DNA of 24,000 bases from the NCBI RefSeq assembly GCF_000161455.1, contig NZ_CM000745.1, positions 2,699,496-2,723,495 of the forward strand, in the 5' to 3' direction. A program made the position numbers and the translations under genes. The notes beneath the pieces were generated by a model. It worked only from the letters and a program-made list of their open reading frames with translations, made no database searches and was not told where the DNA came from. The first letter of the stretch is position 1. Every line of letters starts with the position of its first letter. Shown one piece after another: positions 1 through 16,733 of the stretch. Source of the stretch: Bacillus pseudomycoides DSM 12442. Lineage in GTDB: Bacteria > Bacillota > Bacilli > Bacillales > Bacillaceae_G.

Positions 1-22
1 AAGAACTAGGGAGGCAGAGAGG

Positions 23-3000
23 ATGGCAGTCAGTACATATCAGTTGTTTCAACACCTTAATATGACAGGAGCACAAGAAGAATTAGCATTGCGTTACTTG
101 CAGACGAGAGATGAAGAAGTTTTAAAGCATATAGAACAAACGACCATTCGCGAAAATAAGCGTAGTGATTTTGCTTGGCAGTTCATGAATGACTTTAGGA
201 AAACATATAAGAAAGATCCAGTGTTTTTTCGGTTATTCTATCATTTACTTGAGGATCAATTGTTGAATGTTCTTCTCGTGCGTTTTTCATATATGAGTTT
301 TCCAGATATAAAGGTTTATTTCGAAAAAAGCGGTCTTTCATTCGATAGACTTGTAGTATTTGCTTGTAAGTATTTAACGAATCTTTCGCGTTCTGTAAAT
401 GAAGCGGATGTTTTTCTTAGACAATTAATAAGGGAGAATCCGAAGTATATAGAAGAACAGTTGCAAGTTATAACAGGTCAGCAAAAATTACTTTTGCTTC
501 TAGTTATGTTAGATGCAGATTATGAGAGATTTCTTCCCTATCGTTCTTTACTGGAAGAAGAATTGGAAGAGCATGCGGAGTATATATTGAGGTTAAGTGG
601 AGCGGAAGAGAAGATTGAAGCAGCTCAAAGGTACGTTCGAGGTGAAGCTGTTAGTAAAGTATTTGCTGGGTCATCTTTACCTGACTTTACTTGGCAGCAA
701 ATTTTTCGTATGTATCCGCATTCGGATGTTGCAAGAAGATATATGGAATTGTTAGTGAAATGCTCTGTAAAAAATTTTATGAATTATGCAATTTCACATG
801 TCAGCCATACTCTTGAACAGTCTGGAAATTACAAAAAAACAAAAAGTTTTTATGCACAATTGTATGAAACAACTCGAGATTTGTGTGAACAATTCGGTAT
901 TTCAGAGGAAAGATTTTTTGCATATCGCCTTACGCAGCATCATTTAGGTGTTGTTGATTTTGATCGCGTATATGAATATCAATTGTTGCTTCGAATGGTG
1001 GAAGAACAACCGGAATTTGTGCAGCGTACACTGCAATATTTAAGTCAAAGTCATTACCTTTTCGTATCAATGCTTTTAGCGGAAAAAGGGTACGAGCTAC
1101 ATAGAAACAAAGTACGTGAAGAGTTTTTAACGGTTGTCCTTCAAACGAAATCATCTGACATACGTGGTACATATCGTGACTATCTATTAGGCACTTTATC
1201 ATTTGAGGATATGAAGCAATGGTTCGAAAGCTCGAAGTTTAGAAATAATTACTGGAGAATGCCTGTTTTAGAAATTGCATTACTTTGGGATATAGAGGAA
1301 GCAGCAAAGAGGGAAGCCACTCTTACGCTTCAACTTGGGAAAGGGTATAACTATAGTTTATATGAACTTCTGCAGCGGTATGCTGCTATGGAGAACTCGC
1401 CAGAACAGGTGCTGGAAGATCTGCTTACCTACGGTTTATCGATGGAGAAGCTCGTTTCTTATTCCATTGAACAAGCTTCCGGGCATAGTGAGAAGCGAGA
1501 TAAGGCGACGGAGGCACTCGTTCGTTTGTTTGTAAAAGAACGAGCGTATGTGAAAGGTGAATTTCCTGAGTATTCTGCAGATGAACGGATTTTTATTTTG
1601 GATGAGTTGGCAAAGGATAACGCAGTTCAGACGCGTGATCTTCTCATTCAAAGTCTTGGGGATTCCTCTAAAAAGGTACGTACCGCTGCAGTTGAACTTC
1701 TTACAAAAGATACGGAAGCTGCAGAAGATGTAGCAAAGGAATTAAATCATAAAAAGAAAGTTGTTCGCGAAAATGCAATGCAAACACTTTTATATTATAA
1801 AACTGACAAATATACAAAGCTTGTACAGGAAGCTTTACAAGAAAAGAAAAACGCTTCTTTGACGGAGAAGTTTGCCCCATTGCTTGGTGACGGGGAATTA
1901 GAAGGAGCATCAGGAAGTATAGAAGCTCTTTGCACGCGTATTTTAACGCCGCAAAAAAGGAATGCACTTGTGCAGTGGATCGGATTTGAACCGCAAATTC
2001 GTCTCCGCGATTCCGATACCATTGCAGATGCAATGATTCCTCTTGCATATTTTCAGCAGTACGTATCAGATTCTGTTATTGAGAAGAAGGAAGTAGCAGA
2101 AGCAATAAGCGCTGCTCTTAACGAACAAGATTTGAAGGAAAATATACAAGCGATCTATCAGCTTTGGGTTTCTCAAGGCGCGGAATCGAAGAAACGCGGT
2201 ATTCTTTCGTTGTACGGTATTTACAGTGATGATGAAATGGCGATGCAACTCAAAAAGCAGATTGATGAGTGGGCGCTTGGTATGCGCGGAGCGATTGCTG
2301 CTGCAGCTGTTCAGGCGCTAGCGTTGTCCCAATCACATATTGGGCTAATGTCTATCCATGCGATGGCATTTAAGTATAAACATAAGCAAGTGCGTAATGC
2401 TGCGAAAGAAGCGCTGAGTCTCGCTGCTAAAACGCGTGGTATTACAGAAGAAGAGCTAGAAGATCAGCTTGTCCCAGACCTTGGGTTTAATAAGCGCGGT
2501 GAAAAGACAATTGATTACGGCAGCAGAACATTTACTGCCTATTTAACTCCAAACTTGAAAATTGAGCTAAAAACGGGAGAAGGAAAACGAATAAAGTCGC
2601 TTCCGAAACCAAATGCAAAAGATGATGCGGAAAAAGCTGAGGAGGCTAAGGCGGAGTTATCCTCTATAAAGAAGCAGCTCCGAACTATGATTACGATGCA
2701 AACGCAGCGTCTTGAAACAGCACTTTCTCTGAATCGCTATTGGTCACAAAATACATGGAAGTCTCTGTTTGTAGAAAATCCAATTCTGCAGCAGTTTGCT
2801 ATCTCCCTTATTTGGGGTGAGTATAAGGAAGGAAAGTTGCTTGCGATGTTCCGCTATATGGAGGATGGCACGTTTAATACGATTGAAGAAGAAGAGCATG
2901 AACTTACGCCAGACACTGTTATCGGTCTAATTCATCCGTTAGAATTGTCCGAGGACGAAAGGGAATTATGGAAGGAACAGCTAGAAGATTATGAGGTTAC

Positions 3001-3451
3001 TCAGCCATTTCCGCAAATTGACCGCGAAGTATTTCAGGTTGAGGAGAATGAGGAAGTCACTGTGGAAAGGTTTGCTGGTATCCAGATCAATGGCCGTTCG
3101 CTGTTTGGTAAGATGACGAAGTACGGCTGGAGTCGTGGATCGGTTCAAGATGCCGGTGTATATTATACATTCTATAAAGAAGATACTCGCGCCGGACTAG
3201 GGGCGGAGCTTGCGTTTGAAGGGGCACCGGTTGGATATGAAGGTGAGGAGGATGTGTGCGTTTTTGAAATTCAATTTTACAAAGCAGGCACGGTGAGCCG
3301 CGGTTCATATGACTACGACGAAATTGATCATGAGAGACGCGTTTTACCGAAGCAAGTATCGGAACGCTTTTTCAGTGAAATTTTATATGATATAAAACGG
3401 GCAACAGAATCGAATCTTGGCCGTGATGAAAACTGGCGCAGCAAGCGATAA
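23..3451 (+). CDS. Large (1142 aa) DUF4132-type protein with HEAT-like repeats (YehI/MolR-like)
   Basis: Uninterrupted 3.4-kb ORF with GGGAGG..AGAGG purine-rich SD just upstream of ATG 23. Has HEAT-like helices (KKVRTAAVELL, VVRENAMQTLL, KQVRNAAKEAL). C-terminal third (NPILQQFAISLIWGEY ... WSRGSVQDAGVYYTFYKE) fits my recollection of DUF4132. Same size and position as E. coli yehI relative to yehLMPQ. Family assignment is by recall only. Confidence 0.75.
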   Translation: MAVSTYQLFQHLNMTGAQEELALRYLQTRDEEVLKHIEQTTIRENKRSDFAWQFMNDFRKTYKKDPVFFRLFYHLLEDQLLNVLLVRFSYMSFPDIKVYFEKSGLSFDRLVVFACKYLTNLSRSVNEADVFLRQLIRENPKYIEEQLQVITGQQKLLLLLVMLDADYERFLPYRSLLEEELEEHAEYILRLSGAEEKIEAAQRYVRGEAVSKVFAGSSLPDFTWQQIFRMYPHSDVARRYMELLVKCSVKNFMNYAISHVSHTLEQSGNYKKTKSFYAQLYETTRDLCEQFGISEERFFAYRLTQHHLGVVDFDRVYEYQLLLRMVEEQPEFVQRTLQYLSQSHYLFVSMLLAEKGYELHRNKVREEFLTVVLQTKSSDIRGTYRDYLLGTLSFEDMKQWFESSKFRNNYWRMPVLEIALLWDIEEAAKREATLTLQLGKGYNYSLYELLQRYAAMENSPEQVLEDLLTYGLSMEKLVSYSIEQASGHSEKRDKATEALVRLFVKERAYVKGEFPEYSADERIFILDELAKDNAVQTRDLLIQSLGDSSKKVRTAAVELLTKDTEAAEDVAKELNHKKKVVRENAMQTLLYYKTDKYTKLVQEALQEKKNASLTEKFAPLLGDGELEGASGSIEALCTRILTPQKRNALVQWIGFEPQIRLRDSDTIADAMIPLAYFQQYVSDSVIEKKEVAEAISAALNEQDLKENIQAIYQLWVSQGAESKKRGILSLYGIYSDDEMAMQLKKQIDEWALGMRGAIAAAAVQALALSQSHIGLMSIHAMAFKYKHKQVRNAAKEALSLAAKTRGITEEELEDQLVPDLGFNKRGEKTIDYGSRTFTAYLTPNLKIELKTGEGKRIKSLPKPNAKDDAEKAEEAKAELSSIKKQLRTMITMQTQRLETALSLNRYWSQNTWKSLFVENPILQQFAISLIWGEYKEGKLLAMFRYMEDGTFNTIEEEEHELTPDTVIGLIHPLELSEDERELWKEQLEDYEVTQPFPQIDREVFQVEENEEVTVERFAGIQINGRSLFGKMTKYGWSRGSVQDAGVYYTFYKEDTRAGLGAELAFEGAPVGYEGEEDVCVFEIQFYKAGTVSRGSYDYDEIDHERRVLPKQVSERFFSEILYDIKRATESNLGRDENWRSKR

Positions 3452-3466
3452 GAAAGGAACTGACAT

Positions 3467-4573
3467 ATGCAGTCTATTAAACCATTAATGGAAGAATTAT
3501 ATGAAATAGAATTGAATGCGTTAGAAGCGAATGATTCGTTTCCGAAACCACCTAACTGGCGATTGTCACCGCGTGCCGTTCGGACGTTTATTATTGGACA
3601 AGAAGAACCGCTTCTTTTAGAAGGAAAAGAAGTGGAAATTAGTCGTAAGTTTTATGGTAATGATGCGCTTGTGGAACGAGCAATTGTCACATTAGCAGGA
3701 AACCGAGGACTTATGTTAATCGGAGAGCCAGGAACAGCAAAGACGATGCTAAGCGAGCTGCTTTCTGCCGCAATATGCAGAAATAGCCGTAACACTGTGC
3801 AAGGAACAGCTGCTACGATGGAAGATACGATTAAGTATTCGTGGAACTATGCACTTCTTCTTGCGAAAGGGCCTGTAAGGGGGGCGCTTGTGCCAGGACC
3901 TCTCTTTGTTGGGATGGAACAAGGGATATTAACTAGATTTGAAGAATTGACTCGCTGTCCGCAGGAAGTGCAAGATTCATTGATCAGCGTTCTGAGCGAT
4001 AAAGTACTAAATATTCCGGAGTTTGGGGAGCAAGGAATTCTTACAGCTAAGCCTGGATTTAATATTATTGCGACGGCTAACACACGAGATCGCGGTGTGA
4101 ATGAGATGAGTAGTGCATTGAAGCGTCGTTTTAATTTTGAAACGGTGCATCCGATTAAGGATGTAAAGCTTGAAGCAAAAATAATAGAGTCACAAGTAAC
4201 GCGCTTATTAGGAGCATCAGGCATCACACCCAAAGTGGATGAGACGGTTGTTCAGCTGTTAGCGACTGTTTTTCATGAACTACGGGAAGGTGTAACTGCT
4301 GAAGGAAAACGAATCGATCAGCCATCTTCTGTTATGAGTACTGCAGAAGCAGTATCGGTATATTATCAAAGCGCAATGGATGCGTATTATTATGGAAGCG
4401 GACAAGTGAAGATGGATGCGCTTGTTCGGTATTTATCGGGCACAATTGCGAAAGAAAACAAGGATGATTTAGAAAAGCTGCGCAGTTACTTTACAAGCAT
4501 CGTTAGGGCGCGAGGTCAAGTAGGAGGAGAGGTATGGAAGTCGTTTTTCGAAGCTCGCAATCAGCTGAAGTAA
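3467..4573 (+). CDS. MoxR-type AAA+ ATPase (AAA_5 / YehL-like)
   Basis: 368 aa. Walker A GEPGTAKT; Walker-B-like ILTRFEEL; sensor-1 IIATANTRD; arginine-finger region SALKRRF. Starts 15 nt after the upstream stop. Confidence 0.85.
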   Translation: MQSIKPLMEELYEIELNALEANDSFPKPPNWRLSPRAVRTFIIGQEEPLLLEGKEVEISRKFYGNDALVERAIVTLAGNRGLMLIGEPGTAKTMLSELLSAAICRNSRNTVQGTAATMEDTIKYSWNYALLLAKGPVRGALVPGPLFVGMEQGILTRFEELTRCPQEVQDSLISVLSDKVLNIPEFGEQGILTAKPGFNIIATANTRDRGVNEMSSALKRRFNFETVHPIKDVKLEAKIIESQVTRLLGASGITPKVDETVVQLLATVFHELREGVTAEGKRIDQPSSVMSTAEAVSVYYQSAMDAYYYGSGQVKMDALVRYLSGTIAKENKDDLEKLRSYFTSIVRARGQVGGEVWKSFFEARNQLK

Positions 4574-6846
4574 ATGCATTGTTTCAAAGAGCTTACAATT
4601 TAGATCACAATGTCGTATATGTGCCGATTCGCCATCATAGTCCTGCGTGCTCTTTTCATGTACAAAAGATCGTTAAATTCTATAAACCGGATGCGATTCT
4701 TATAGAAGGACCGATAGATTGCAACCCTCTTATTCCGCATATTGTGAGTGCAGAAAGTGAGGCTCCAATTTGTATATATTGCAGTTATGATGATAAAACG
4801 GATGTGCTTGAAAGAGGAGAAAGTGGAAAGTACCGTGCGTACTATCCCTTTCTCGACTATTCACCGGAACTTGTCGCGCTGCGGGAAGGAGCTGCGCGCA
4901 ATATTCCAGTTTCATTTATTGATCTTCCTTATAAAGAATATTTGTTTGCAACGAAAAATGAGGAAGAGAATGGGAAGTATGACGAGCAATATTTCCGGCA
5001 CAGTCAATATGTCCGTATGCTTTCGGAAAAAACGGGGTGCCGAAGCTTTCATGAATTTTGGGAGAAATACTTTGAGTTGCAAGGCTTTCATATGACAAGC
5101 GAGGAGTTTGTCCGTCAGCTCTTCGATTATTGTTATTATACGCGCGCGGACTATACGCAGGAGATGTTGACAGAAGACGGATGCGAAGCCAGGGAGATAC
5201 ACATGGCAAAGGAAATTGAAAAAGCGCGTAAAGTGTATGACAAGGTGCTCGTTATTACCGGAGGCTTTCATGTGAAAGGGCTTCTTGAATTGGAAGGGAA
5301 AAAGAAAAAGAAAAAGCTGTCCAAAAGCCCATTATCTAAAGCGTATGCCAAAAACTATCTTATGCCGTATTCCTTTTTGGAAAGCGATCAGATGCGTGGC
5401 TATGAGAGCGGTATGCCTGCACCTGCTTTTTACCAACATATTTGGGAGAACAGGGATGAAGCGGTAGCTGAGCAATTTATGATACGAATTGCTAGACAGC
5501 TAAAGGCAGAAGGAATATCAATGGCAGATAAGATTGAAGCTGCGCGAATGATACGTGAACTTGCACTGCTTCGGGGAAAGATGCAACCTGGATTGTATGA
5601 ACTGATGGATGCAGTGCGTAGTGCATTTGTGAAAGGTGAGATATTCTCGGCAGATAAACCTTTAACGCTGCTTCAGAAGAGTTTGCAAGGGACGAAGCGC
5701 GGAAAATTGTCAAAAGAAGCGGATGTGCCGCCGCTCGTGCATGATTTTCGTGCTTCTGTTCGTTCGTTTCGTCTTCCGGCACGTTCTACTGTACCACAGG
5801 AGACGATTCTTGACATATACAAGAAAGAAAGGCACTTGCGTTTAAGTCAGTTCTTTCATTGCCTCGCTTTTTTAGGAGTTCCGTTTTGCGAGAAGCTGCG
5901 CGGTCCGAACCTAGCTAGAAAGCAGAATATTAATCTTATACGAGAAACTTGGAAATATCGTTTCTCAGCGCAGGTGGAAAGTGCTCTTATTGATTTATCT
6001 GTGTATGGCGGAACGGTGAGAGAAGCCGCGCAGGAAATGCTAAGAGCAAAGCTGTATAAGGCGAAAGTGCGTGCGGGAGAGGTGGCTCTTTTATTGCTAG
6101 AAGCCTACTTAAGTGGTTTGTTTTCCGATTTCGCTATGTACAATCAGTTTATAGATGAAGCAATACAGGCGGATGGAGATTTTGCTTCTATGGCAGATTG
6201 TGCTTACTATTTATCACAAATAGAAAAAGAAAATCAGCAAGCGGATCATGCTAGACATAAAGCACTTTCGTTATTTTCTGTTTTAGATGGGGGCGAACCA
6301 GCAATTACTGCGGAAAAACTTATTGATTTGTATACAATGCAGCCTGCAGACCAGCAATTTATTGAAGCACTGGAGCTTTATTTGCAAAGGGAAAAACGAG
6401 AAAGCCAAGTAGAAGGGGCAGTATTTGGGCTGTTAACTTCTTTAGGGAAGCGGAAAATCGATGAGGTAATGCAAGTGGCAGAAGGATATTTTTATGGAAG
6501 TGGCGATATGCAAAAGCAAGCTCCGATATTTTTGAATGGTTTGTTTGCTGGCGCAAAAGATATCTTCTTATATAACGAATCGCTGCTTGACGGAATGTCT
6601 CATGTTCTAGAAGAACTTGATGAAGAGACATTTTTACAAGTATTGCCGCATTTGCGCCTCTTGTTCAGTCAATTCACGCCGCTTGAGGTGGATACGATTG
6701 CTAAACAGATTGCGCGGTTATATGGAGCCACAGAAGAAGTGATAAAAGAAGAAGCAATTTCCGAAGAAGTGCTGACGTATGCAATACAGTTAGATCGCAA
6801 GGCACGGGAAATTTTAATGAGACGGGGGCTAGAAGATGGAGAATAA
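4534..6846 (+). CDS. DUF5682-type protein (YehM-like), 770 aa
   Basis: Long ORF. AGGAGGAG SD at 4522-4529, 4-6 nt before ATG 4534. Overlaps the ATPase gene by 40 nt. Size and position match yehM/DUF5682 in AAA-DUF5682-vWA-SWIM clusters (recall). Confidence 0.7.
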   Translation: MEVVFRSSQSAEVNALFQRAYNLDHNVVYVPIRHHSPACSFHVQKIVKFYKPDAILIEGPIDCNPLIPHIVSAESEAPICIYCSYDDKTDVLERGESGKYRAYYPFLDYSPELVALREGAARNIPVSFIDLPYKEYLFATKNEEENGKYDEQYFRHSQYVRMLSEKTGCRSFHEFWEKYFELQGFHMTSEEFVRQLFDYCYYTRADYTQEMLTEDGCEAREIHMAKEIEKARKVYDKVLVITGGFHVKGLLELEGKKKKKKLSKSPLSKAYAKNYLMPYSFLESDQMRGYESGMPAPAFYQHIWENRDEAVAEQFMIRIARQLKAEGISMADKIEAARMIRELALLRGKMQPGLYELMDAVRSAFVKGEIFSADKPLTLLQKSLQGTKRGKLSKEADVPPLVHDFRASVRSFRLPARSTVPQETILDIYKKERHLRLSQFFHCLAFLGVPFCEKLRGPNLARKQNINLIRETWKYRFSAQVESALIDLSVYGGTVREAAQEMLRAKLYKAKVRAGEVALLLLEAYLSGLFSDFAMYNQFIDEAIQADGDFASMADCAYYLSQIEKENQQADHARHKALSLFSVLDGGEPAITAEKLIDLYTMQPADQQFIEALELYLQREKRESQVEGAVFGLLTSLGKRKIDEVMQVAEGYFYGSGDMQKQAPIFLNGLFAGAKDIFLYNESLLDGMSHVLEELDEETFLQVLPHLRLLFSQFTPLEVDTIAKQIARLYGATEEVIKEEAISEEVLTYAIQLDRKAREILMRRGLEDGE

Positions 6847-7942
6847 CATTTCTTTAAATCGCTGGCGTCTTGTTCTTGGGAAACATGCAGATGACCAAAT
6901 CACATTTCAGGAAGAAGACCCTGCATACAGAGCAATGGATGAGGTACTGGAGTTTTTGTACGAGAGAGAACGCGGAGAAGAACGCGGCGGGTCGTTGGAT
7001 CCCTCTCAGCTAACAGTGCCGACTTGGATTTCGAAAGTGCGGGAGTTATTTCCGAAAGAAACCATTGAGATTATGGAAAATCATGCGCTAGAAAAGTATG
7101 AATTAACGGCTCTATTGCAAGATAAGCAAACGCTTGAAAAAATGGAGCCGAATATGAATTTATTAAAATGCATTTTACAATTTAAAGATTATGTAAAACC
7201 GGATGTATTAGACACAGCTAAACGTATTGTAGCGAAAGTCGCTGAGGAGTTGCGGCGTAATTTAGAGCAAGAAGTGAAGCACGCATTAAGCGGTAGACCA
7301 GATCGAAATCGTTCTAGTCGCGTTCGCACGATGCGCAACTTTGATTTTAAGAAAACGATTCGAAAGAACTTAAAGCATTTTGACAAGGAAACAAACGCCA
7401 TTCATATTGAAAAACCGTACTTTTATGCTGCCACGAAGCACGTTAGCCCATGGCGTGTGATCCTCGCAGTAGACGAGAGCGGAAGTATGATTGATTCTGT
7501 TATTCATAGCGCAGTTATGGCGGGTATTTTTGCAAGCTTACCGACGATTAAGACAGATCTGTTCATCTTTGATACAGCTGTTGTTGATTTAACGGATCGT
7601 ATTGACGACCCGGTGGAAACGCTTATGAGCGTACAGCTTGGGGGAGGAACATATATTGCTCAGGCGCTGCGCTACGCAACGAATAAAATCGAGATGCCTC
7701 ATAAAACAATTGTCGTGCTTGTAACAGACTTATATGAAGGTGGCAGTTACAATGAAATGTACCGAGAAGCGATGAAGATTGTAGAATCAGGAGCAAAGCT
7801 GATCGTGCTAACATCTCTGGATCCGACTGCACAGCCTTTTTATGATAAACAGGCAGCTAAAAAAATGGCGGCGCTCGGTGCTCATGTAGCGGCGTTAACA
7901 CCAGGGAGGTTGGCACAATGGATCGCAACAATCATTTCTTAA
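6836..7942 (+). CDS. von Willebrand factor A (vWA) domain protein with MIDAS (YehP-like)
   Basis: 368 aa. MIDAS DxSxS as ILAVDESGSM, downstream GGGT (QLGGGTYIAQAL) and VLVTDLYEGG. Overlaps the upstream gene by 11 nt. Confidence 0.85.
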   Translation: MENNISLNRWRLVLGKHADDQITFQEEDPAYRAMDEVLEFLYERERGEERGGSLDPSQLTVPTWISKVRELFPKETIEIMENHALEKYELTALLQDKQTLEKMEPNMNLLKCILQFKDYVKPDVLDTAKRIVAKVAEELRRNLEQEVKHALSGRPDRNRSSRVRTMRNFDFKKTIRKNLKHFDKETNAIHIEKPYFYAATKHVSPWRVILAVDESGSMIDSVIHSAVMAGIFASLPTIKTDLFIFDTAVVDLTDRIDDPVETLMSVQLGGGTYIAQALRYATNKIEMPHKTIVVLVTDLYEGGSYNEMYREAMKIVESGAKLIVLTSLDPTAQPFYDKQAAKKMAALGAHVAALTPGRLAQWIATIIS

Positions 7943-9552
7943 ATGTTCTTTCCTCTATTGATGAAACATACTTAATTGCCATGTCTAACAAAGGAACATA
8001 TAAGAGAGCAATGAAGGATTTGGCCGTTGTATCAAATGTCAAAATGGACGTAGAAGAGGGTGCAGCGCAAATACATCTTGATGACGGAATTACTGTAACG
8101 TTTACGGGTGATATACGCAGTTACTCTTGTAGTTGTGAAGCCCGTTCGATTTGTAAACATGTCATTATGGCTCTATTAGAAGCAAAGAAGATGTACGAAG
8201 GTGAAGAGAACATAAAAGTTGATTTCTCTGCTCTTTTGAATGTGAACGTTCGCAATATTGTCTCCGAAAAAATGTGGGCTGAAATGATGTTTCGCGAAAC
8301 ATTTCAGCAAAAGTTTGTTTTAGAAGAAGAGGGGGCTTTAATTGCCACTTTCCGAGAAGAGAATATAACAGTTCGCTTTCTAACAGCTGAATCGGTAGCG
8401 GCTGCGATCTGTACGTGCAAAGCAGAGGGGATATGCCGGCATAAGGCGGAAGCGGTATATTGGTATCAAAAAGAGAAGGGAATCTCGCACGAAACGAAAC
8501 AGATGCATCCTCTTATCATTGCGCCGGATAAGCTATCTATTTTCAAAGAAATGATCGAGCAAATTGTTCACTTTGGATTAACACGCCTTACCGAAAATAC
8601 AATCTATGAAATAGAACAACTTTCTGTAAAAGCACGTTCTTTGAAACTCGCAAAGTTAGAGAATTTATTTCGTAAGCTCGGGGCGGATATTGGGCTATAT
8701 CGGATGAAGCATGCATCTTTTCAAATGGCATCTTATCGGCAAACGGTGTCCGCGATTTATGAACACATTTTGTTGTTGGAACGCCACCATCTGCAAGAGA
8801 GTCCGTTTCGTTCGGAATATTACGAAGTTCCACCACTTATTTTGCATGCTTTTGGTGCATCTGGCTGGCAAACGAAGTCTGGTTATGTTGGTGTGACGTA
8901 TTATTTCTATAATCGAGAACAGGAAAAGTGGATTACATACACACAGTCGCGCCCCATGTTTTATGAAGGGAGCAGCACAACTCCTGAAGAACTCCATGAA
9001 AGGCAAGTTCCATGGGGAATTGCAGGGAAAGGATACGAACTATCTCGTTCATCTGTCCGATTGAAGCAGGCAAAACTTAACGTCGATTTTCAATTGTCAT
9101 CTAGCTCACAGACAGTAGGAGAAGTGGAAGGAAAAACAAATGTGGCAGAGTGGCAATCTCTCTTTTTAACCTCATGGGAAGAACTATTAAAAAAAGTAAA
9201 AGAGCAAAGGTTAGAGGCAAATAAACAAGGAATCTTTTGTATCGAAGTTGCTGAAATAGGAGAATGGAAGTTTCAGAAGCAAGAACAAAAATGGATCATA
9301 CCTCTTATCGATAAGAATGGGAAAACATTGCAAATGCAAATGATGAAACGACCAGAAAATGAGCGAATGATTCGACTTGTAAAAATATATATGGACTCGT
9401 TGCATATAAAGAGAATGCTAGTTCATCCTTATCAGGAAGGAACAAAGCTCGTTGTTACACCTATCATTTTATATACAGAAGCAGGAGAGATTATAAATAC
9501 TACACTGAGTGAAGGGGGAACGTTCTATGATCGAGTTAATGCGCCTAATTGA
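7918..9552 (+). CDS. SWIM zinc-finger protein with two SWIM motifs (YehQ-like)
   Basis: 544 aa. GGGAGG SD 8 nt before ATG 7918. Two CxCx5CxH motifs: CSCEARSICKH (nt 8128-8160) and CTCKAEGICRH (nt 8413-8445). Overlaps the vWA gene by 25 nt. Confidence 0.8.
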   Translation: MDRNNHFLNVLSSIDETYLIAMSNKGTYKRAMKDLAVVSNVKMDVEEGAAQIHLDDGITVTFTGDIRSYSCSCEARSICKHVIMALLEAKKMYEGEENIKVDFSALLNVNVRNIVSEKMWAEMMFRETFQQKFVLEEEGALIATFREENITVRFLTAESVAAAICTCKAEGICRHKAEAVYWYQKEKGISHETKQMHPLIIAPDKLSIFKEMIEQIVHFGLTRLTENTIYEIEQLSVKARSLKLAKLENLFRKLGADIGLYRMKHASFQMASYRQTVSAIYEHILLLERHHLQESPFRSEYYEVPPLILHAFGASGWQTKSGYVGVTYYFYNREQEKWITYTQSRPMFYEGSSTTPEELHERQVPWGIAGKGYELSRSSVRLKQAKLNVDFQLSSSSQTVGEVEGKTNVAEWQSLFLTSWEELLKKVKEQRLEANKQGIFCIEVAEIGEWKFQKQEQKWIIPLIDKNGKTLQMQMMKRPENERMIRLVKIYMDSLHIKRMLVHPYQEGTKLVVTPIILYTEAGEIINTTLSEGGTFYDRVNAPN

Positions 9553-9805
9553 TGAATTGGAAGAAGTTCTAGATGAGATGCTTGTCTCAGGAGCAGGGAC
9601 TGTCCCTCTTTCCTTTTTTCAGGATATAAAACGAGAATGCGAAAAGTATGGTCTTTCTTATGCTGCCACGCAGGTGCTTATCATAGAGGAAGAGCGAAAC
9701 AAGGCCCGCTTTCTTCATAAAGAAGAAACAAACAAACTGACAGAAGCATTTTGTAAGTTGCAGGAATATATTCAAGTTATAAAGGCTGAAATGCTGCATT
9801 TATAA
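9527..9805 (+). CDS. Small (92 aa) predicted helical protein of unknown function, last gene of the operon
   Basis: GAAGGGGGA SD at 9511-9519 then ATG 9527 (the ORF track starts at GTG 9509). Overlaps the SWIM gene by 26 nt. No recognisable motif. Confidence 0.5.
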   Translation: MIELMRLIDELEEVLDEMLVSGAGTVPLSFFQDIKRECEKYGLSYAATQVLIIEEERNKARFLHKEETNKLTEAFCKLQEYIQVIKAEMLHL

Positions 9806-9930
9806 ATAGCTGGGTTAGTAGATGAATATTGAATTTAAATAAAAAGGTTTTCGCTAGAAGTATGCTGAAGAAGAAACGAAAACGCTCGCAGTGGGGAGAA
9901 ATTGTACTGATTTTCCGAAAGTACTAATAA

Positions 9931-9959
9931 TTGCCAAAATATTAATTTGCAAGTATAAT
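9931..9959 (+). promoter_or_regulatory. Sigma-A-type promoter for the Y-RNA array
   Basis: TTGCCA (9931-9936), 17-nt spacer, TATAAT (9954-9959). Predicted start about 9966, roughly 25 nt before the first Y-RNA unit. Confidence 0.55.
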
Positions 9960-9991: not shown

Positions 9992-10132
9992 GGGCAGTGT
10001 AGGAAAGAATTTCTTCGCCTTTCACGCGGTAGGTCGCAGGTTCGAATCCTTGCCTTCCCTGATGTTTTATTAACATTAGGGGAGTAGCTCAGTTTGGTAG
10101 AGCAACATATTGAGTCTTTCCGCCTATCTCCC
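9992..10132 (+). ncRNA. Y RNA, YrlA-like (unit 1) with circularly permuted tRNA-like module
   Basis: Terminal stem GGG(C)AG..UA..GGAAAGA (9992-10008) pairs with UCUUUCC..UA.CU.CCC (10115-10132). T-arm with GGTTCGAATCC (10039-10049). 7-bp acceptor-like helix CUUCCCU/AGGGGAG capped by hairpin AUGUU-UUAUU-AACAU. D-arm TAGCTCAGTTTGGTAGAGCA (10085-10104). T6 tract follows. Lies next to rsr. Confidence 0.78.
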
Positions 10133-10160
10133 TTTTTTATAATTCATATTTAATAGATTT

Positions 10161-10285
10161 GGGCAGTGTAGAGAAGGATTTCTTCGCTTTGGGTGCCGTG
10201 TGTCATGGGTTCGAATCCCATCCTTCCCATTTTGGAAGGTAGCTCAGTGGTAGAGCAACGTAATGAGCCTTTTCGCTTATCTCCC
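10161..10285 (+). ncRNA. Y RNA, YrlA-like (unit 2) with circularly permuted tRNA-like module
   Basis: Same architecture as unit 1. GGG(C)AG..UA..GAGAAGG (10161-10177) pairs with CCUUUUC..UA.CU.CCC (10268-10285). Perfect T-arm AUGGG-UUCGAAU-CCCAU (10205-10221). Acceptor-like CCUUCC/GGAAGG closed by a short loop. D-arm TAGCTCAGTGGTAGAGCA (10240-10257). Confidence 0.78.
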
Positions 10286-10512: not shown

Positions 10513-10545
10513 AAAAAAGGCAACGTATATACGTTGCCTTTTTTA
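10513..10545 (+). terminator. Rho-independent terminator closing the Y-RNA array
   Basis: A-tract, palindrome GGCAACGTAT/ATACGTTGCC (10519-10538), then T6 (10539-10544). Confidence 0.8.
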
Positions 10546-10593: not shown

Positions 10594-12063
10594 ATGTCAA
10601 AGTTTAATCATTCTTCTCAAGGAAGCCGTCAAACATATACAAAAGAGGGCGGAAAAGCTTATAAAATGTATGATAAAGATAAATTAGTTACGATGGTATT
10701 AACATCTTTCTTTAATGAGCCAAAATTTTATGGTAATAACAGCGAAGAATTAGTTACTACTGCAAAACAAATCATGGACAGAGACCCTAAATTTGTTGCA
10801 AGTTTAGCAGTCTATGCACGTGAAGTGTTCTACATGCGTTCTGTTACACATGTATTAGCAGTGGAACTTGCAAACCACCCTGAAGGTCGTAAATATGCTC
10901 GTCAAACAGTTTCTCGTATTGCGCAGCGTCCGGATGATGTAACAGAAATAATGGCATATCAATTAGGGGTATATGGTCGGAAAAATCCAATTCCAAACTC
11001 TTTGAAAAAGGGGTTAGCAGATGCCTTTTCTACATTTGATGAATATCAATTAGCAAAATACAATCGCACAGGAAAAGACGTTACATTGAAAGATGTATTC
11101 CGTTTAGTAAGCCCATCTGCCAAAAAAGGAACAGAACGTTACGAACTTTATAAACGTTTGTTAGAAAACACACTGCAAGTACCATATACATGGGAAACAC
11201 AGCTTTCTCAAAAAGGAAACAAAAAAGAAGTGTGGGAAGAATTAATTGATAGCGGAAAAGTGGGTTATATGGCCTTACTTCGTAACCTTCGCAATATCGT
11301 AAATTCAGGTGCCTCAAATATTGATACAGTATATAACATTCTTCGCGATCCTGAGCGAGTAAAAAAATCAAAACAATTACCATTTCGCTTTTTTTCAGCA
11401 TATCGTGTTGTGCAAGAAAAATTACCACAAGCAGGAAGCGAATTATTAGATATATTGAATGACGCAATTGAAGCATCTGTTACAAACATGCCGAGATTAT
11501 CAGGAACAACATTTATGACAGCAGATATCTCAGGATCTATGACATGTTATCCTGTTTCAAAAGATGGGAGTGTTAAATGTGCAGATATTGCTACACTAAT
11601 GATGGCAATGGCACACTCCTTCTGTGATAATTCTATTACATCTGTATTCGCAACTGATTTCAAAGCGATAAATGTTTCTACCCGTTCTGGTATTTTAGAG
11701 AACATGAACACATTTTTATCAGAAGTTAATAAACATGGATATGGAACAAACTTACATCTTTCTATCAAATATTTATTAGATCACAAAATCAAAGTTGACC
11801 GCATTCTTGTCTTCTCTGATGAGCAAGTGTACGGAGATAGGTATGGAGACAATTCTTCACAAATTCTTCTTGAAACATATCGTCGTGAAATGAATCCTGA
11901 TGTTTGGGTTCACTCTTTCAATTTAAATAGTTACGGTAATCAACAATTCGTAGGAGAGAAAACAAATTTAATCGGTGGCTGGAGTGAAAAATGTTTGGAC
12001 TTCATTCATTATGCGGAAGAAGGAACAGGTTCCCTTATTTCAGCTATCGAAAATTATCAATAA
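10594..12063 (+). CDS. rsr: Ro60-related protein Rsr (TROVE domain + C-terminal vWA/MIDAS)
   Basis: 489 aa. N-terminal TROVE-like sequence (KLVTMVLTSFFNEPKFYGN, FVASLAVYAREVFYMRSVTHVL, YMALLRNLRNI, LPFRFFSAY). C-terminal MIDAS TADISGSMT. Adjacent to the Y-RNA-like genes. Confidence 0.9.
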   Translation: MSKFNHSSQGSRQTYTKEGGKAYKMYDKDKLVTMVLTSFFNEPKFYGNNSEELVTTAKQIMDRDPKFVASLAVYAREVFYMRSVTHVLAVELANHPEGRKYARQTVSRIAQRPDDVTEIMAYQLGVYGRKNPIPNSLKKGLADAFSTFDEYQLAKYNRTGKDVTLKDVFRLVSPSAKKGTERYELYKRLLENTLQVPYTWETQLSQKGNKKEVWEELIDSGKVGYMALLRNLRNIVNSGASNIDTVYNILRDPERVKKSKQLPFRFFSAYRVVQEKLPQAGSELLDILNDAIEASVTNMPRLSGTTFMTADISGSMTCYPVSKDGSVKCADIATLMMAMAHSFCDNSITSVFATDFKAINVSTRSGILENMNTFLSEVNKHGYGTNLHLSIKYLLDHKIKVDRILVFSDEQVYGDRYGDNSSQILLETYRREMNPDVWVHSFNLNSYGNQQFVGEKTNLIGGWSEKCLDFIHYAEEGTGSLISAIENYQ

Positions 12064-12376
12064 TTTTTGTTACACTCTTTTTATTTAGAAGACGGAATAA
12101 TTAGGATAACGGCAGGTCTAGTTAACCATGATGCAATAAAAAAGAAACTCATAATCTTTATTTTAAGAAACCAATGATTTTCTAATGAAAGCAGGGTTAC
12201 CTGGAGCTGCTCGTCCATTTCTATGATTTGAGCCGTTAGCTAATCTTGGCGAGGATAGATTAACTACAAAAGCAACTGGATAGTAACAAACAATAAATTG
12301 CCTACTGATAAGATAAAACTAGTTTATGAAATTTTAATAAAGCATGCTGTTAATTCCAGTATTAAGGAGTTTGAAA

Positions 12377-12721
12377 ATGAAAATAAATAATAGTGAGTAT
12401 GGTGGTTTTGTCGTTTCAAAAAATATTCTGGCTGGAAAACCAGTTAGATATTCATTTAGACAAGAAAGTTCTATCCCGCAATTAAATGGCTGGAATTTGT
12501 ATGCTATAGATGATACTGATGACTATGTGAATCATGCAGAAAATTTTATCATCTTAAACGCGGAATCTATTTTTAAAATCGTCCCTGTAATGTTTGAGAT
12601 TTTTGAAGCTCCTTTTGGAACGGATCTATGCTGGCTATATGAAGAAGGAGTTCATATTGGATTTTATGATGTAGTCGCCGATAAAGAAGTGACCATTAAT
12701 GAACTTATAAAACAAAACTAG
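12377..12721 (+). CDS. Small hypothetical protein, possibly DUF2185/Imm33-like
   Basis: AAGGAG SD at 12365-12370, 6 nt before ATG 12377 (the ORF track starts at 12344). Family call is weak recall only. Confidence 0.5.
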   Translation: MKINNSEYGGFVVSKNILAGKPVRYSFRQESSIPQLNGWNLYAIDDTDDYVNHAENFIILNAESIFKIVPVMFEIFEAPFGTDLCWLYEEGVHIGFYDVVADKEVTINELIKQN

Positions 12722-12770
12722 TTTTTTCATGTAGCTCTATTTTATAAGTTCTTTAGTAGATGACAAACAA

Positions 12771-12815
12771 GCCCCTTATAAGCCCCTTCCAACCCCCTTA
12801 TAAACCCCTACCAAG
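12771..12815. repeat. Four tandem 11-bp iteron-like direct repeats
   Basis: GCCCCTTATAA / GCCCCTTCCAA / CCCCCTTATAAA / CCCCTACCAAG. One copy per helical turn, about 185 bp upstream of the DnaD-type replication gene. Confidence 0.55.
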
Positions 12816-12999
12816 TAATAAATCATTAAATAAACAAAAGAAAAAACAACTACAAGAACTACTATGAAAAAATAAAAAAGTAACATTCTAGTACTAGTAA
12901 AAATTATAAAATAAATCCACCAAATTCCTGCCTGCAATCCTATATATAGAAGGAGTAACCAATTCTATATTTACCACTAAAAAGGCGGGAGGAAGAAAC

Positions 13000-13872
13000 A
13001 TGGGAGTATACCGGAGTGTACAGGTGAATTTTTGGCAAGATGAGTTTGTACTTGATTTAACGCCAGAGGAGCGCTATTTTTATATGTATTTGCTGACATG
13101 TTCGAAGACGACACAATGCGGGATTTACTCACTGCCACTACGTTTGGTAGAGATGGAAACGGGGTATAACCGTGAAACTGTTGAGAAGTTGTTGCAAAGG
13201 TTTGTTGCGTATGGAAAGATATTATATGACGCGAAAACGAAGGAGTTATATGTTCTAAATTGGTTACGTTATAACCCTGTTACAAATACGAACATAGAAA
13301 AGTGTGTGTTACGTGAGTTAAAGACTGTGAAAAATAAAGAGTTTGTACATATGTTTCTTCAAAGATGCCTCGAGGAAGAGTTGAATATTCCGTTATTGTT
13401 AGAACATTTCGGAATGCCAGTTGAAGTATCTGATGTGATTCCGCAAGAAGTTTTTCAAGGTTGTGCACAGGATGAGAAAGTAGAAGAAGTAGAAGAAAAA
13501 GCGAATCCAGGTAGCAGTGTATTCACATTTTATGAACAAAACTTCGGTAGTTTGTCATCATATGCAGCGAAGGAATTAAGTGAATGGGTTACGGATTTGT
13601 CGGAGGAGCTTGTACTAAAGGCACTTCAGATTGCCTATGAAAATAATAAGCGGACGCTTGCTTATGTGAAGGGGATTTTACGAGATTGGCATGGGAAAGG
13701 ATATACGAAGCTCAGTGAAATAGAGGAAGCAGCAGCGAAGTTTCGAAAGAAGGAGCCGTCTATTCTTTATGAGACGGAGAAGTTTTTGGAGGAGTGTGAA
13801 GAGTGGAAGAAGAATGTTCCGTCTGAGGAAGAATTACAGAAGTTCTTGCAGGAACAAGGGTGGCAGCCGTGA
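13000..13872 (+). CDS. Phage/plasmid replisome organiser with DnaD-like C-terminal domain
   Basis: 290 aa. GGGAGG SD. N-terminus VQVNFWQDEFVLDLTPEERYFYMYLLT is typical of the phage replisome-organiser N domain. C-terminus FYEQNFG..ELSEW..ALQIAYENNKRTLAYVKGILRDWHGKG is DnaD-like. Confidence 0.85.
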   Translation: MGVYRSVQVNFWQDEFVLDLTPEERYFYMYLLTCSKTTQCGIYSLPLRLVEMETGYNRETVEKLLQRFVAYGKILYDAKTKELYVLNWLRYNPVTNTNIEKCVLRELKTVKNKEFVHMFLQRCLEEELNIPLLLEHFGMPVEVSDVIPQEVFQGCAQDEKVEEVEEKANPGSSVFTFYEQNFGSLSSYAAKELSEWVTDLSEELVLKALQIAYENNKRTLAYVKGILRDWHGKGYTKLSEIEEAAAKFRKKEPSILYETEKFLEECEEWKKNVPSEEELQKFLQEQGWQP

Positions 13873-14057
13873 GTATTCAACATATCGAGGCGGAACAAAT
13901 GGTGTTAGGATCTTTGCTTCTTGATGGTGAACTAATTAAGGAGTGTCACCTGATTGAGCGGTACTTTTCTATGGGTGTGTATCAAACTATATTCAATTCG
14001 ATACGAAAAATAAAGGAAGACGGGCTGCAGTTAGACAAGATAATTTTACTTAAGTAG
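13869..14057 (+). pseudogene. Truncated replicative DNA helicase (DnaB N-terminal fragment, about 62 aa)
   Basis: GTGA start/stop overlap with the DnaD-like gene. IEAEQMVLGSLLLDGELI is the conserved DnaB N-terminal signature. The ORF stops after about 60 codons, whereas DnaB-type helicases are several hundred residues. Confidence 0.7.
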
Positions 14058-14116
14058 ATTAACTTGCATGCTAGTTTTGGATGGAGCTTGAAGAATTAGA
14101 AAAAGGAGATCTTAAA

Positions 14117-14584
14117 ATGATAATAAACGATGCCGTTTTTGGTGAACTTGAATATAATTACGGATGGGTAAGGTACACTACTATAACGTTTTGTGGAAAG
14201 GAAGCTAAGATAGCGTTAATGGTAGATGGCGAAGAGGAAAGTGGATTTGATAAAGAACAATATGAATCATATGATTCATTGATGGAAAATTGGGAGCAAG
14301 TGCAACAAAGTATTTTGCAACCGATTTTAGACTATTATAAACAAAAAAGGTATGAGCTTGGTTATGATATTGAATTTAATGAACATTATCCTTTAATTGA
14401 AACAACTGATCAACTTCTTAATAGGATAAGTTTAGTTGGAATTGTTGTTCCGTATGCGGGTATTTTTGAAGGTCGAGGGATCGGACTCACCTTCGACTGT
14501 ACATGGGATATGGAAAATGGTTTAGGTCTTCTTCTTATAAATGAAAAGGTAACCGAAGTGGGCTATCAGGATGTTGCGATTTGA
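14117..14584 (+). CDS. Hypothetical protein, immunity-protein-like (family uncertain, possibly DUF6985/DUF2004-type)
   Basis: AAGGAG SD 8 nt before ATG 14117 (the ORF track starts at 14081). Small, acidic and cytoplasmic. Sits at the head of the immunity-type gene array. Confidence 0.55.
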   Translation: MIINDAVFGELEYNYGWVRYTTITFCGKEAKIALMVDGEEESGFDKEQYESYDSLMENWEQVQQSILQPILDYYKQKRYELGYDIEFNEHYPLIETTDQLLNRISLVGIVVPYAGIFEGRGIGLTFDCTWDMENGLGLLLINEKVTEVGYQDVAI

Positions 14585-14684
14585 ATAGGGTGAAGTAATA
14601 TAAAGATAGCTTAGAGTTTTCTTTTAAAATATGAAATTGATGAAGAAAAGAAGACGCTCAATTATATTATGTGTAAAGAGTTTT

Positions 14685-14717
14685 AATTTAAATTTAAATT
14701 TAAATTTAAATTTAAAT
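14685..14717. repeat. Hexanucleotide microsatellite (AATTTA) x 5.5
   Basis: Perfect AATTTA repeats from 14685, running into the ATG at 14716. Confidence 0.95.
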
Positions 14718-15234
14718 GAAGCATGAGGTGAATGAATTGTTTACAAAAGATACATACATTAGCTCGGTAAAAGAAAATCTTGAAAAAAATTCAGAAAGGT
14801 TGATTCATAATATAAGGGAAATTCTTAATTTTAATTATTACAGTAAAATAGAGTTAGTAGATTTTATGATTTTTATCGGATCGTTTGACCTTTCTATCAT
14901 GATGTTTTCTATGAATAGAGAAGCAAGTGAGGTTTTTTACGAAGGAAACGATAGCAGTGTTTTTGCAGGAAGTCATGAATTACTCGAACGTATATCATAC
15001 TATAACCTTTCTTATGATAAATCAGACGAGTTCTGGGAGTTTTATGAAGAAAACGATGAGATCATATCGGAAGATGAGGAAAAAATCATTGTGGAATGGT
15101 TTATTGATTGCTGGAATAAAGCAAATGGAGGAAGTATAAAATTACCTGCCTATTGTGGTTTTCATGATGCTAATCAATCATTTGACTTGCAGAAAAATAT
15201 ATGGGTTTCTGATGAGGAAAAGTGGTGGGATTAA
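14716..15234 (+). CDS. Hypothetical acidic protein (172 aa), immunity-protein-like context
   Basis: ORF with Bacillus-like codon usage. The real start may be TTG 14737, 6 nt after GAGGTG (14725-14730). No recognisable motif. Confidence 0.5.
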   Translation: MKHEVNELFTKDTYISSVKENLEKNSERLIHNIREILNFNYYSKIELVDFMIFIGSFDLSIMMFSMNREASEVFYEGNDSSVFAGSHELLERISYYNLSYDKSDEFWEFYEENDEIISEDEEKIIVEWFIDCWNKANGGSIKLPAYCGFHDANQSFDLQKNIWVSDEEKWWD

Positions 15235-15383
15235 TACGCAAAAGATAACGGCTTGTTTTTTAGAGTATCACAGAATAGAGAAAAATGATTTTTACTGAAA
15301 GAGGATATGTCTAACGAACTTATGCCGATGATACACAATCAAAAAGAGATGGTGAAAATAATTTACCAAGGAGTGGAACTACG

Positions 15384-15812: not shown

Positions 15813-15881
15813 AGTTAAACAGTTATATAGCCTTCAGGGGAATAGAATAAAAATTCATGTGTATAAAGGGGAATTCAAAGA

Positions 15882-16451: not shown

Positions 16452-16570
16452 GGATTAGCTAGTCCCGATAAAGGTCTATTATGGTTTAAACGAAATAGTA
16501 CATATCATAGAAAAGATAAATTAAAAAACCGAAACATCACCTCGCCAAAAGAATAAAAGGGGAGTATAAG

Positions 16571-16702
16571 ATGAATGAAAAAGTAACAGTATGGATTGGG
16601 AATTTTGAGAGTAATGATGAGTTTGAAAACTATACGAATATTAAATATACAGAAGATGGGGATAGTATACCTTCTATATTCGAACAACATTTGATGGAAT
16701 AA
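16571..16702 (+). pseudogene. Truncated Imm22-like immunity gene (43 codons)
   Basis: AAAGGGGAG SD then ATG 16571. MNEKVTVWIGNFESNDEFENYTNIKYTEDGDSIPS resembles the N-terminus of immunity-22-family proteins (recall). Stops early at 16700-16702. Confidence 0.5.
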
Positions 16703-16733
16703 TAGAATTTTAATTGGAGGAGGGATAGTTAAG

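Follow-up and report, generated by a model that had tools for sequence, protein, structure and literature searches.

A six-gene MoxR/vWA operon of Bacillus pseudomycoides belongs to a cassette family preceded by DNA-damage promoter signals in four phyla

We analysed a 24,000-nt stretch of the Bacillus pseudomycoides DSM 12442 genome (contig NZ_CM000745.1; called the window hereafter, and coordinates are relative to it), in which six genes at 23-9805 form the operon under study. The first five proteins are homologues of Escherichia coli YehI, YehL, YehM, YehP and YehQ, and the cassette belongs to a widespread, uncharacterised family (yehI plus yehLMPQ in E. coli; ddrTUVWX in Deinococcus) that is conserved across at least four phyla. 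Three regulator systems of different families, LexA, DdrO and PafBC, precede the same cassette, and its link to DNA-damage regulation in four phyla points to a job after DNA damage and not to phage defence. Quite possibly, although we stop short of probably, the operon encodes a DNA damage-induced, ATP-driven complex of this family, composed of six subunits, that remodels or processes proteins.

Regulatory sites upstream of the cassette

The operon promoter is located just outside the window, and the upstream DNA was read from contig L084 of B. pseudomycoides, which is identical to window positions 1-9451. A LexA/Cheo-type box (AGAAACGTATGTTCGT) was found at window-relative position -135 to -120, 157 nt upstream of the ATG, together with an extended -10 element (TGATATACT, containing TATACT) at about -106 to -98. 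The sequence [A/G]AAC-N4-GTTC(G) was present 17-18 nt upstream of the TATACT -10 in 13 of the 13 Bacillaceae loci of our survey and in the source contig, a position that covers the -35 of the operon promoter. It was kept in loci L013, L014 and L015 although the upstream DNA there was otherwise unalignable, and perfect GAAC-N4-GTTC half-sites were found in L011 (Bacillus paranthracis) and L015 (Ectobacillus). The Cheo box consensus is reportedly CGAAC-N4-GTTCG, from the work of Cheo in 1991 and Au in 2005. Inside the window, a search for Cheo boxes gave matches at chance level.

In E. coli, the gene directly upstream of yehI is molR (yehF/yehH), a paralogue of yehI with WGR, HEAT and DUF4132 parts; molR is counted among LexA genes whose SOS box is known (PMC6590174). 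A box-like sequence (CTGGATAAAATTACAG) was found 10 nt upstream of yehF; through the LexA-box scan, we found no site before yehI or yehL, the sole site being the one before yehF/molR.

The Deinococcus relatives carry a different type of site. The ddrTUVWX genes of D. deserti, which have no known function, rank with the genes most strongly induced by radiation (5- to 10-fold or more), depend on IrrE/DdrO, possess a radiation/desiccation response motif (RDRM) and belong to the radiation/desiccation response regulon together with recA, uvrA/B, ssb and gyrA/B (PMC5552922). They were equated with the D. taeanensis cassette by product names and operon size, not by sequence. The D. taeanensis operon contained TTACGCCAGAAACATAA, a perfect degenerate-RDRM palindrome, 20 nt before its first gene, with 0.01 such sites expected per 19 kb. 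Mitomycin C induces both the DUF4132 protein DRA0166 and the WGR protein DR2173 of D. radiodurans, and both are targets of DdrO (PMC8533742).

In Streptomyces sp. NBC_01205, TTGTCAGTG-8nt-TACTGT was located 36 nt before the DUF4132 gene (0.00 expected by chance), an exact fit to the PafBC/RecA-NDp consensus tTGTCRgtg-8nt-TAnnnT (PMC5656591). The divergent cassette of S. atratus had a RecA-NDp-like copy with one mismatch at the same position. This variant (L091, 2857-15567, on a plasmid) is composed of a 288-aa DUF4132 protein, a 1640-aa 'DNA-binding protein', an AAA protein, a 1255-aa DUF5682 protein and a 623-aa protein.

The experimental basis of the damage link consists of the Deinococcus and molR cases only. 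The first-pass annotation, made from the window sequence, had overlooked DNA-damage regulation, the strongest pointer to a function, including the published ddrTUVWX operon and molR, the SOS gene adjacent to yehI.

Composition of the operon and its relatives

The genes of the operon and other features of the window are listed in Table 1. Six co-directional open reading frames (ORFs) with overlaps and internal Shine-Dalgarno (SD) sites had been described, and we confirmed them in the ORF list and the sequence: the DUF4132 and AAA genes are separated by 15 nt, the successive later overlaps are 40, 11, 25 and 26 nt, and a purine-rich SD-like stretch lies upstream of each internal start. The last ORF has its longest form at 9509-9805 with a GTG start. 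All five expected Pfam families (DUF4132, AAA_5, DUF5682, VWA and SWIM) scored above their gathering thresholds, and the Walker A, metal ion-dependent adhesion site (MIDAS) and double CxCx5CxH motifs quoted earlier were all found. RefSeq annotation already gives the Bacillus genes these DUF names.

Table 1. Features of the window (positions relative to the window)
Feature	Position	Strand	Remarks
DUF4132 protein (YehI-like)	23-3451	+	1142 aa; first gene of operon
MoxR-class AAA+ ATPase, YehL subfamily	3467-4573	+	368 aa
DUF5682 protein (YehM-like)	4534-6846	+	770 aa
CoxE-type vWA protein (YehP-like)	6836-7942	+	368 aa
Double-SWIM zinc-finger protein (YehQ-like)	7918-9552	+	544 aa
Small helical protein, sixth subunit (putative)	9527-9805 (ATG form)	+	92 aa
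YrlA-like Y RNA module 1	10002-10124		33 bits
YrlA-like Y RNA module 2	about 10140-10262		44.7 bits for 10197-10262
rsr (TROVE/Ro60)	10594-12063		downstream of operon
Imm33	12344-12721		immunity-type gene
DUF6985	14081-14584		immunity-type gene
SUKH/SMI1_KNR4	15384-15812		immunity-type gene
SUFU-like	15882-16451		immunity-type gene

The DUF4132 protein (Pfam DUF4132 2.5e-52, HEAT_2 4e-05) comprises about 850 aa of helical/HEAT repeats followed by the C-terminal DUF4132 domain (residues 854-1036); no WGR domain was detected in it, and a profile search of its C-terminal 450 aa against PDB sequences revealed no significant relatives. The ATPase (AAA_5, 9.4e-32) contains the Walker A motif GEPGTAKT at residue 86, the Walker B-equivalent RFEELTR, the sensor-1 ATAN and KRRF; these motifs are common to YehL, including the YehL-specific Walker B-equivalent 'RFEE[LI]TR', and we take this protein to belong to the YehL subfamily of the MoxR AAA+ scheme. 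The DUF5682 protein matched its family with 3.2e-101. The vWA protein (VWA_CoxE, 9.5e-52) has an intact MIDAS (DESGSM at residue 213) with GGGT and TDL elements downstream, and is presumed to be the adaptor partner of the MoxR ATPase. The SWIM protein (SWIM, 2.9e-05, over the gathering score) contains two fingers, CSCEARSICKH at residue 71 and CTCKAEGICRH at residue 165, then a helical module (about 205-290) and a C-terminal domain. No PDB sequence matched the SWIM protein in a profile search, and its C-terminal domain had no detectable PDB relatives. We found 673 cluster representatives of the SWIM family in 1.84 billion proteins; the search was aimed at the 92-aa module and dominated by long fused sequences, so this number informs on family size only. 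An NCBIfam scan of the operon proteins gave only distant, sub-threshold ATPase and chelatase matches.

Through BLASTP against E. coli K-12, the highest identities were found for YehL (48%, 5e-111) with the ATPase and YehP (46%, 3e-114) with the vWA protein. YehI showed 32% identity over the C-terminal 340 aa (4e-47), YehM showed 29% identity with the DUF5682 protein (5e-46), and YehQ matched only the N-terminal part of the SWIM protein (23%, 2e-07). The idea that the operon corresponds in Bacillus to yehI plus yehLMPQ was thus upheld by Pfam and BLASTP. The 92-aa ORF matched no E. coli K-12 protein, YehK included.

The ATPases of Deinococcus, Streptomyces and Allorhizobium showed 42-50% identity with the window ATPase, and the DUF4132 proteins of the latter two 33-34% identity with the window DUF4132 protein. 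Streptomyces contained the full gene set in the window order. Allorhizobium (Rhizobiales) also contained the full set, but with the DUF4132 gene inserted between the DUF5682 and vWA genes. For the D. taeanensis operon (L088), BLASTP gave 42% identity for AAA, 27% for DUF5682 and 33% for vWA, and the SWIM proteins had only the finger in common. DUF5691, a component of the Deinococcus operon, gave only a faint match in the window (E 0.005), where DUF4132/HEAT is present instead. In the literature searched, we found no functional study of yehL, yehM, yehP or yehQ, nor of DUF4132, DUF5682 or DUF5691, in agreement with the earlier remark that the yeh-type cluster has no assigned function.

Genomic distribution

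A DUF5682 alignment searched against one genome per species yielded 80 Bacillota loci (Bacillus, Clostridium, Lachnospiraceae and others). In this survey of the five-gene core, which had been proposed, the order AAA-DUF5682-vWA-SWIM was kept in nearly all loci, with a few exceptions that had inserted genes or no detectable SWIM gene. Bacillaceae and some Clostridia had the DUF4132 gene upstream of the other genes, whereas most Clostridia and Lachnospiraceae had it downstream of them.

Besides contig L084, the DUF5682 protein was found on a contig of 5.78 Mb, and the locus is therefore chromosomal there. The 322-kb plasmid p322 of B. mycoides contained a 92.6% identical copy, the match stopping exactly at window position 9806, where the small ORF ends. 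In 13 further Bacillaceae genomes the alignment spanned about 1-9806 only and the flanks were mosaic, and so the six genes behave as one cassette. The 117 nearest flanking proteins at about 70 loci fell into 110 Pfam families; there was no recurrent neighbour among them, and defence-like flanks were few (AbiEii-like AAA_21, 4/117; PLD nuclease, 2/117). Some loci had heterogeneous cargo inside the operon, including TnpB, RhuM, GH1, ADP-ribosylglycohydrolase, Schlafen/AlbA and UvrD helicase.

The E. coli locus was matched in 5394 of 5426 complete genomes (at least 80% covered in 4009) and was nearly always chromosomal. Of 72,556 plasmid records, 42 contained DUF5682, and most of these were megareplicons or mislabelled chromosomes; among 50,697 phage records, the single match was a metagenomic contig.

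In two Clostridium loci (L021, 13256-15798, and L023), the vWA gene was split by a TnpB/Cas12f-like (IS605-type) insertion of about 2.5 kb, and in B. pfraonensis (L012) the SWIM gene was broken into ORFs of 172 and 350 aa; the cassette therefore decays in some lineages. One Lachnospiraceae cassette (L046, 5568-8918) contained a gene for a 1117-aa UvrD/REP-family helicase between the AAA and DUF5682 genes, which is compatible with a DNA-repair or a defence reading alike. Upstream of the window, two small divergent ORFs (179 and 100 aa; minus strand, L084 4711-5739) with no Pfam hit were located between the cassette promoter and a gene with a PoNi_C domain; the 179-aa ORF was also found upstream of the cassette in L003, L004 and L012.

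The last gene of the operon

Pfam gave nothing for the 92-aa ORF, which RefSeq lists on the B. mycoides plasmid as hypothetical protein WP_002161882.1. With a hidden Markov model (HMM) built from BLAST hits, we found that, in most of the 80 Bacillota loci, a homologue lies directly downstream of the SWIM gene. The same HMM matched the last ~90 residues of SWIM proteins of 680-807 aa in about 25 Lachnospiraceae loci, with domain E-values of 1e-7 to 1e-16. Weak matches were also found to the helical segment after the SWIM fingers, both in the window protein (residues 210-258, E 2e-4) and in the Streptomyces SWIM protein (residues 274-323, E 9e-4). The module was not detected in YehQ, YehK or the small Deinococcus ORF.

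Because its homologues follow the SWIM gene or are fused to the SWIM protein, the 92-aa protein appears to be a real, conserved subunit of the operon, and from the sequence matches it is best read as a module of the SWIM protein that was split off or duplicated. Gene fusion suggests that it presumably binds the SWIM protein. The first-pass annotation knew of no counterpart for this ORF in the E. coli cluster; counterparts exist, following the SWIM gene in most Bacillota loci and fused to the SWIM protein elsewhere.

A candidate catalytic domain in the DUF5682 protein

The DUF5682 protein is composed of an alpha/beta N-terminal domain (window 4534-5433), a small alpha/beta middle part and C-terminal helical repeats. 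In the N-terminal 300 residues, R33, H34, H35, S36, C39, E58, E112, D130, E174, E177, R220, E221 and H246 were invariant among 39 diverse sequences, a pattern commonly seen where residues form an active site or bind metal.

The AlphaFold models were confident, with a pLDDT of 86 when the whole protein was modelled and 87 when only the N-terminal domain was. With the full-length model, Foldseek returned helical-repeat matches only, none of them significant, and the N-terminal domain was then modelled alone. Against the PDB, the top matches of the domain model were chains of Tetrahymena complex IV (7w5z_E, 8b6h_DQ and 8bqs_DQ; E 0.004-0.04, probability 0.95-1.0), followed by members of the erythromycin-esterase family (3b55, 2rad and 6xcq, EreC/BcR135; E 0.03-0.1). 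Tetrahymena complex IV has been reported with a TraB-family accessory protein (PMC10060162), and the matched chain is probably that protein.

Four motifs were co-linear with the E. coli TraB-family protein YbaP (IRHH/GSIH, ILIEG/LIVEA, AREIHM/QRNLAW and ITGGFH/AVGALH). When the DUF5682 N-terminus was compared by hhalign with YbaP or with an eight-member TraB/GumN alignment, only the last two motifs were aligned, at low probability, and a profile search against PDB sequences found no significant relatives. The TraB, Tiki, erythromycin esterase and ChaN families are said to have been joined by Sanchez-Pulido and Ponting in 2013 into one superfamily of hydrolases and binding proteins. In the model, the DUF5682 N-terminus looks like an enzyme-like alpha/beta domain, and membership of the TraB/Tiki/Ere superfamily is the best available lead, a tentative one drawn from the motifs and the fold ranking.

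Possible function

A multi-subunit MoxR/vWA machine had been suggested for the operon, and we judged this a reasonable reading. In the mechanism we propose, LexA would occupy the Cheo-type box over the -35, and DNA damage would lift the repression. Translational coupling, suggested by the gene overlaps, would then supply the six proteins in fixed proportion. By analogy with CoxD/CoxE, CbbQ/CbbO and RavA/ViaA, the YehL-type MoxR ring and the CoxE-type vWA protein would remodel a client that is gripped by the MIDAS. The HEAT/DUF4132 protein may, together with the SWIM protein and the 92-aa partner of the latter, form the scaffold and read the substrate, and a TraB/Tiki/esterase-like hydrolytic or metal-binding centre in DUF5682, if the tentative fold assignment holds, would process the client.

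The candidate substrate may be DNA, damaged nucleoprotein or protein; the paralogues in E. coli and Deinococcus have WGR domains and S. atratus has a 1640-aa 'DNA-binding protein', which hints that nucleic acid is recognised. In the concrete version we favour, proteins that are trapped on damaged DNA or associated with it would be extracted or cleaved: the MoxR ring and vWA protein would extract, the TraB/Tiki-like subunit would cleave, and the SWIM, WGR and HEAT parts would read the lesion, with DNA-protein crosslinks, poisoned topoisomerases and stalled complexes as candidate targets. With all of these parts taken jointly, this version is clearly unlikely.

Several observations weigh against the proposal of a damage-induced complex. 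The putative box by which LexA would control the Bacillaceae operon is deduced from sequence, and in most Bacillaceae loci it has one core mismatch, AAAC for GAAC in the left half-site. Upstream of the other 62 loci (Clostridia and Lachnospiraceae), a Cheo-type box was found in 6, which is about the background of 7.5% per 300 nt, and no alpha-proteobacterial LexA box was seen in the Allorhizobium locus. The E. coli SOS box precedes molR and is at most a candidate driver of yehI-yehQ. A recognised DNA-repair domain was found in none of the operon proteins, and the fold statistics for TraB/Tiki/Ere are weak (Foldseek E 0.004-0.1, TM about 0.3; hhalign E 0.0055, probability 7%). Moreover, genes of mobile elements and conflict systems are likewise typically induced by DNA damage.

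The last point leads to the main rival, a nucleoside triphosphate (NTP)-dependent conflict system in which the MoxR/vWA pair would sense an invader or prophage induction, the SOS response would be the alarm and the DUF5682 hydrolase would be activated as an effector, either toxic or protective. On comparative-genomic grounds, vWA-MoxR modules have been put forward as conflict systems (mentioned in PMC10910872), and SOS control is common for mobile and conflict genes as well. In the B. cereus group the cassette is patchy, lies in variable regions with mosaic flanks and is megaplasmid-borne in B. mycoides; in the window it adjoins polymorphic-toxin immunity genes and phage-replication remnants. 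The few AbiEii-like and PLD nuclease flanks and the TnpB, RhuM, Schlafen/AlbA and UvrD cargo would fit as well. We nevertheless consider such a system unlikely. None of the five large proteins had a PADLOC match, and the small ORF matched just a HerA fragment, judged spurious (E 0.003); the bpMoxR match had 19 bits, under the cutoff of 27, and Pfam revealed no VMAP or effector-associated domains. The near-core, chromosomal E. coli locus, the rarity of DUF5682 on plasmids and its near absence from phages, the lack of a recurrent partner among the flanking proteins and the regulon shared by the Deinococcus operon with recA, uvrA/B, ssb and gyrA/B also speak against it. A defence role was not supported by the tests run. 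Of the stress-or-conflict role suggested in the first-pass annotation, the conflict side found no support.

Very doubtful, in our estimation, is a chaperone for cofactor insertion or enzyme maturation of the CoxD/CoxE, NorQ/NorD or CbbQ/CbbO type, which would activate or repair a metalloenzyme. The best Pfam matches of the vWA protein (VWA_CoxE) and the ATPase (AAA_5) agree with it, the invariant H34, H35 and C39 and the nearly invariant H42 of DUF5682 could form a metal site, ChaN-type Tiki/TraB members bind haem, and the old name of MolR, 'molybdate metabolism regulator', hints in the same direction. However, no client enzyme gene was conserved beside the cassette in the 80 loci and 117 flanking proteins, the regulatory signals found were all of DNA-damage type, and expression of the D. 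radiodurans molybdate genes was unchanged with DRA0166 and DR2173 (PMC8533742). Barely credible is an accessory module of RNA quality control by the neighbouring Rsr (Ro60) and Y RNAs, in which the MoxR machine would act on damaged RNA jointly with Ro60. The gene rsr and two YrlA-like RNAs do lie 200-800 nt downstream of the operon, and Ro60 itself carries a vWA domain; yet a co-occurrence with rsr or defence genes, for which a survey had been proposed, did not emerge, with Rsr adjacent, outside the window, only in L004 among 14 Bacillaceae loci, the shared sequence elsewhere stopping at 9806 and no partner recurring. A promoter-like site of their own precedes the Y RNAs, and a terminator stands between them and rsr. 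Because the adjacency occurs only in the window and L004, Rsr/Y RNA is an independent neighbour, and the functional link was rejected.

Beyond the annotation, three points were not found stated in the literature searched: the convergence of damage promoters on the cassette across phyla, the sixth subunit with its SWIM fusion, and the enzyme-like, putatively TraB/Tiki-type DUF5682 domain. They link scattered observations, the SOS gene molR in E. coli, ddrTUVWX in Deinococcus and the DUF-annotated operons of Bacillus and Streptomyces, into one hypothesis, that different DNA-damage regulators independently captured the same machine. The locus is ordinary for its family, and the family is a sizeable unsolved machine of five large proteins, including several E. 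coli K-12 genes still without function. This function is now open to simple genotoxin assays in tractable hosts, with candidate catalytic residues of DUF5682 named. If damaged nucleoprotein is indeed processed, a gap in bacterial DNA-damage tolerance would be filled; if not, the cassette still drops off the list of likely phage-defence candidates.

Genes downstream of the operon

The earlier description of the surroundings (Rsr/Y RNA, a prophage remnant and an immunity island) agreed with what we found in the window. Both YrlA-like modules scored below the gathering score of 69, and Rfam gave no hit at the gathering threshold in the whole window. Each module has a tRNA-like domain, and ARAGORN called 10160-10230 as 'tRNA-Pro (tgg)'. 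A near-consensus promoter, TTGCCA-17-TATAAT (9931-9959), is located before the modules, and a strong terminator (10513-10544) after them, upstream of rsr.

The run of immunity-type genes (12344-16451) has no toxin gene nearby, and GC skew is unusually high (0.35-0.39) over 13000-17000. Region 13000-14057 contains a DnaB_2 (DnaD-like replication initiation) ORF followed by a 65-aa fragment of the DnaB helicase N-terminus, and resembles the decayed remains of a replication module from a phage or plasmid. L003, L007 and L012 share parts of this region, directly after the cassette. Further downstream are a Tubby_C_like domain protein (22201-22743) and an IrrE/ImmA-like M78 peptidase ORF (23233-23856, minus strand). 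The M78 family includes the Deinococcus protease IrrE that controls the ddr regulon; the window ORF is more likely a prophage ImmA-type remnant.

Comparison with known systems

The E. coli yehI/yehLMPQ genes encode the same five families, with AAA, DUF5682, vWA and SWIM in the same order, identities of 23-48% and the Walker A, 'FEE' Walker B-equivalent and MIDAS motifs in common. The Bacillus cassette differs in being compact with overlapping genes, in its shorter SWIM protein and extra separate 92-aa subunit, and in lacking YehK and the WGR-domain paralogues (yehF, molR). In E. coli the locus is near-core; in Bacillus its distribution is patchy, and one copy lies on a plasmid.

Deinococcus ddrTUVWX (Deide_18730-18690) likewise encodes a SWIM protein, a MoxR ATPase, DUF5682 and a CoxE-type vWA protein together. 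The gene order is different from that of the window (SWIM-DUF5691-AAA-(small ORF)-DUF5682-vWA), DUF5691 replaces the DUF4132 giant and the SWIM finger is single. Control is by DdrO/IrrE and not LexA, while Bacillus is without the DdrO/RDRM system and has the LexA-type box.

CoxD/CoxE, NorQ/NorD, CbbQ/CbbO and RavA/ViaA are established chaperone pairs of a MoxR ATPase and a vWA protein. As in these pairs, a MoxR-class AAA+ gene stands beside a MIDAS-bearing vWA gene, here of the VWA_CoxE family. The cassette, however, has no linked client enzyme, and three extra large subunits (DUF4132, DUF5682 and SWIM) are obligatorily associated. The vWA-MoxR-VMAP ternary systems, reportedly described as NTP-dependent conflict systems by Kaur, Burroughs, Iyer and Aravind in 2020, resemble it in the MoxR and vWA core, the extra large subunits and the occasional location in variable genomic regions; the cassette differs from them in having no VMAP, bpMoxR or effector-associated domains and no PADLOC model match.

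The N-terminal part of DUF5682 tentatively resembles the TraB/PrgY/GumN-Tiki, erythromycin esterase and ChaN proteins in its alpha/beta fold and in the four co-linear motifs x-H, hhhE, R-x-x-[MW] and G-x-H. Unlike them, its first motif is RHHSPxC and not G[ST]xH, it has large insertions and about 450 aa of further domains are fused to it; significance in sequence-profile comparison was not reached.

In eukaryotes, Cdc48/p97 acts with the Wss1/SPRTN protease in DNA-protein crosslink repair. The cassette family, known here from sequence, would resemble this pathway by functional analogy, with no homology claimed: both combine a damage-linked AAA+ remodeller, a hydrolase, putative in the cassette, and adaptor or reader subunits. 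If the trapped-protein version is true, the cassette would do in prokaryotes what the p97-SPRTN/Wss1 pathway does in eukaryotes, and would have been independently recruited into the LexA, DdrO and PafBC regulons.

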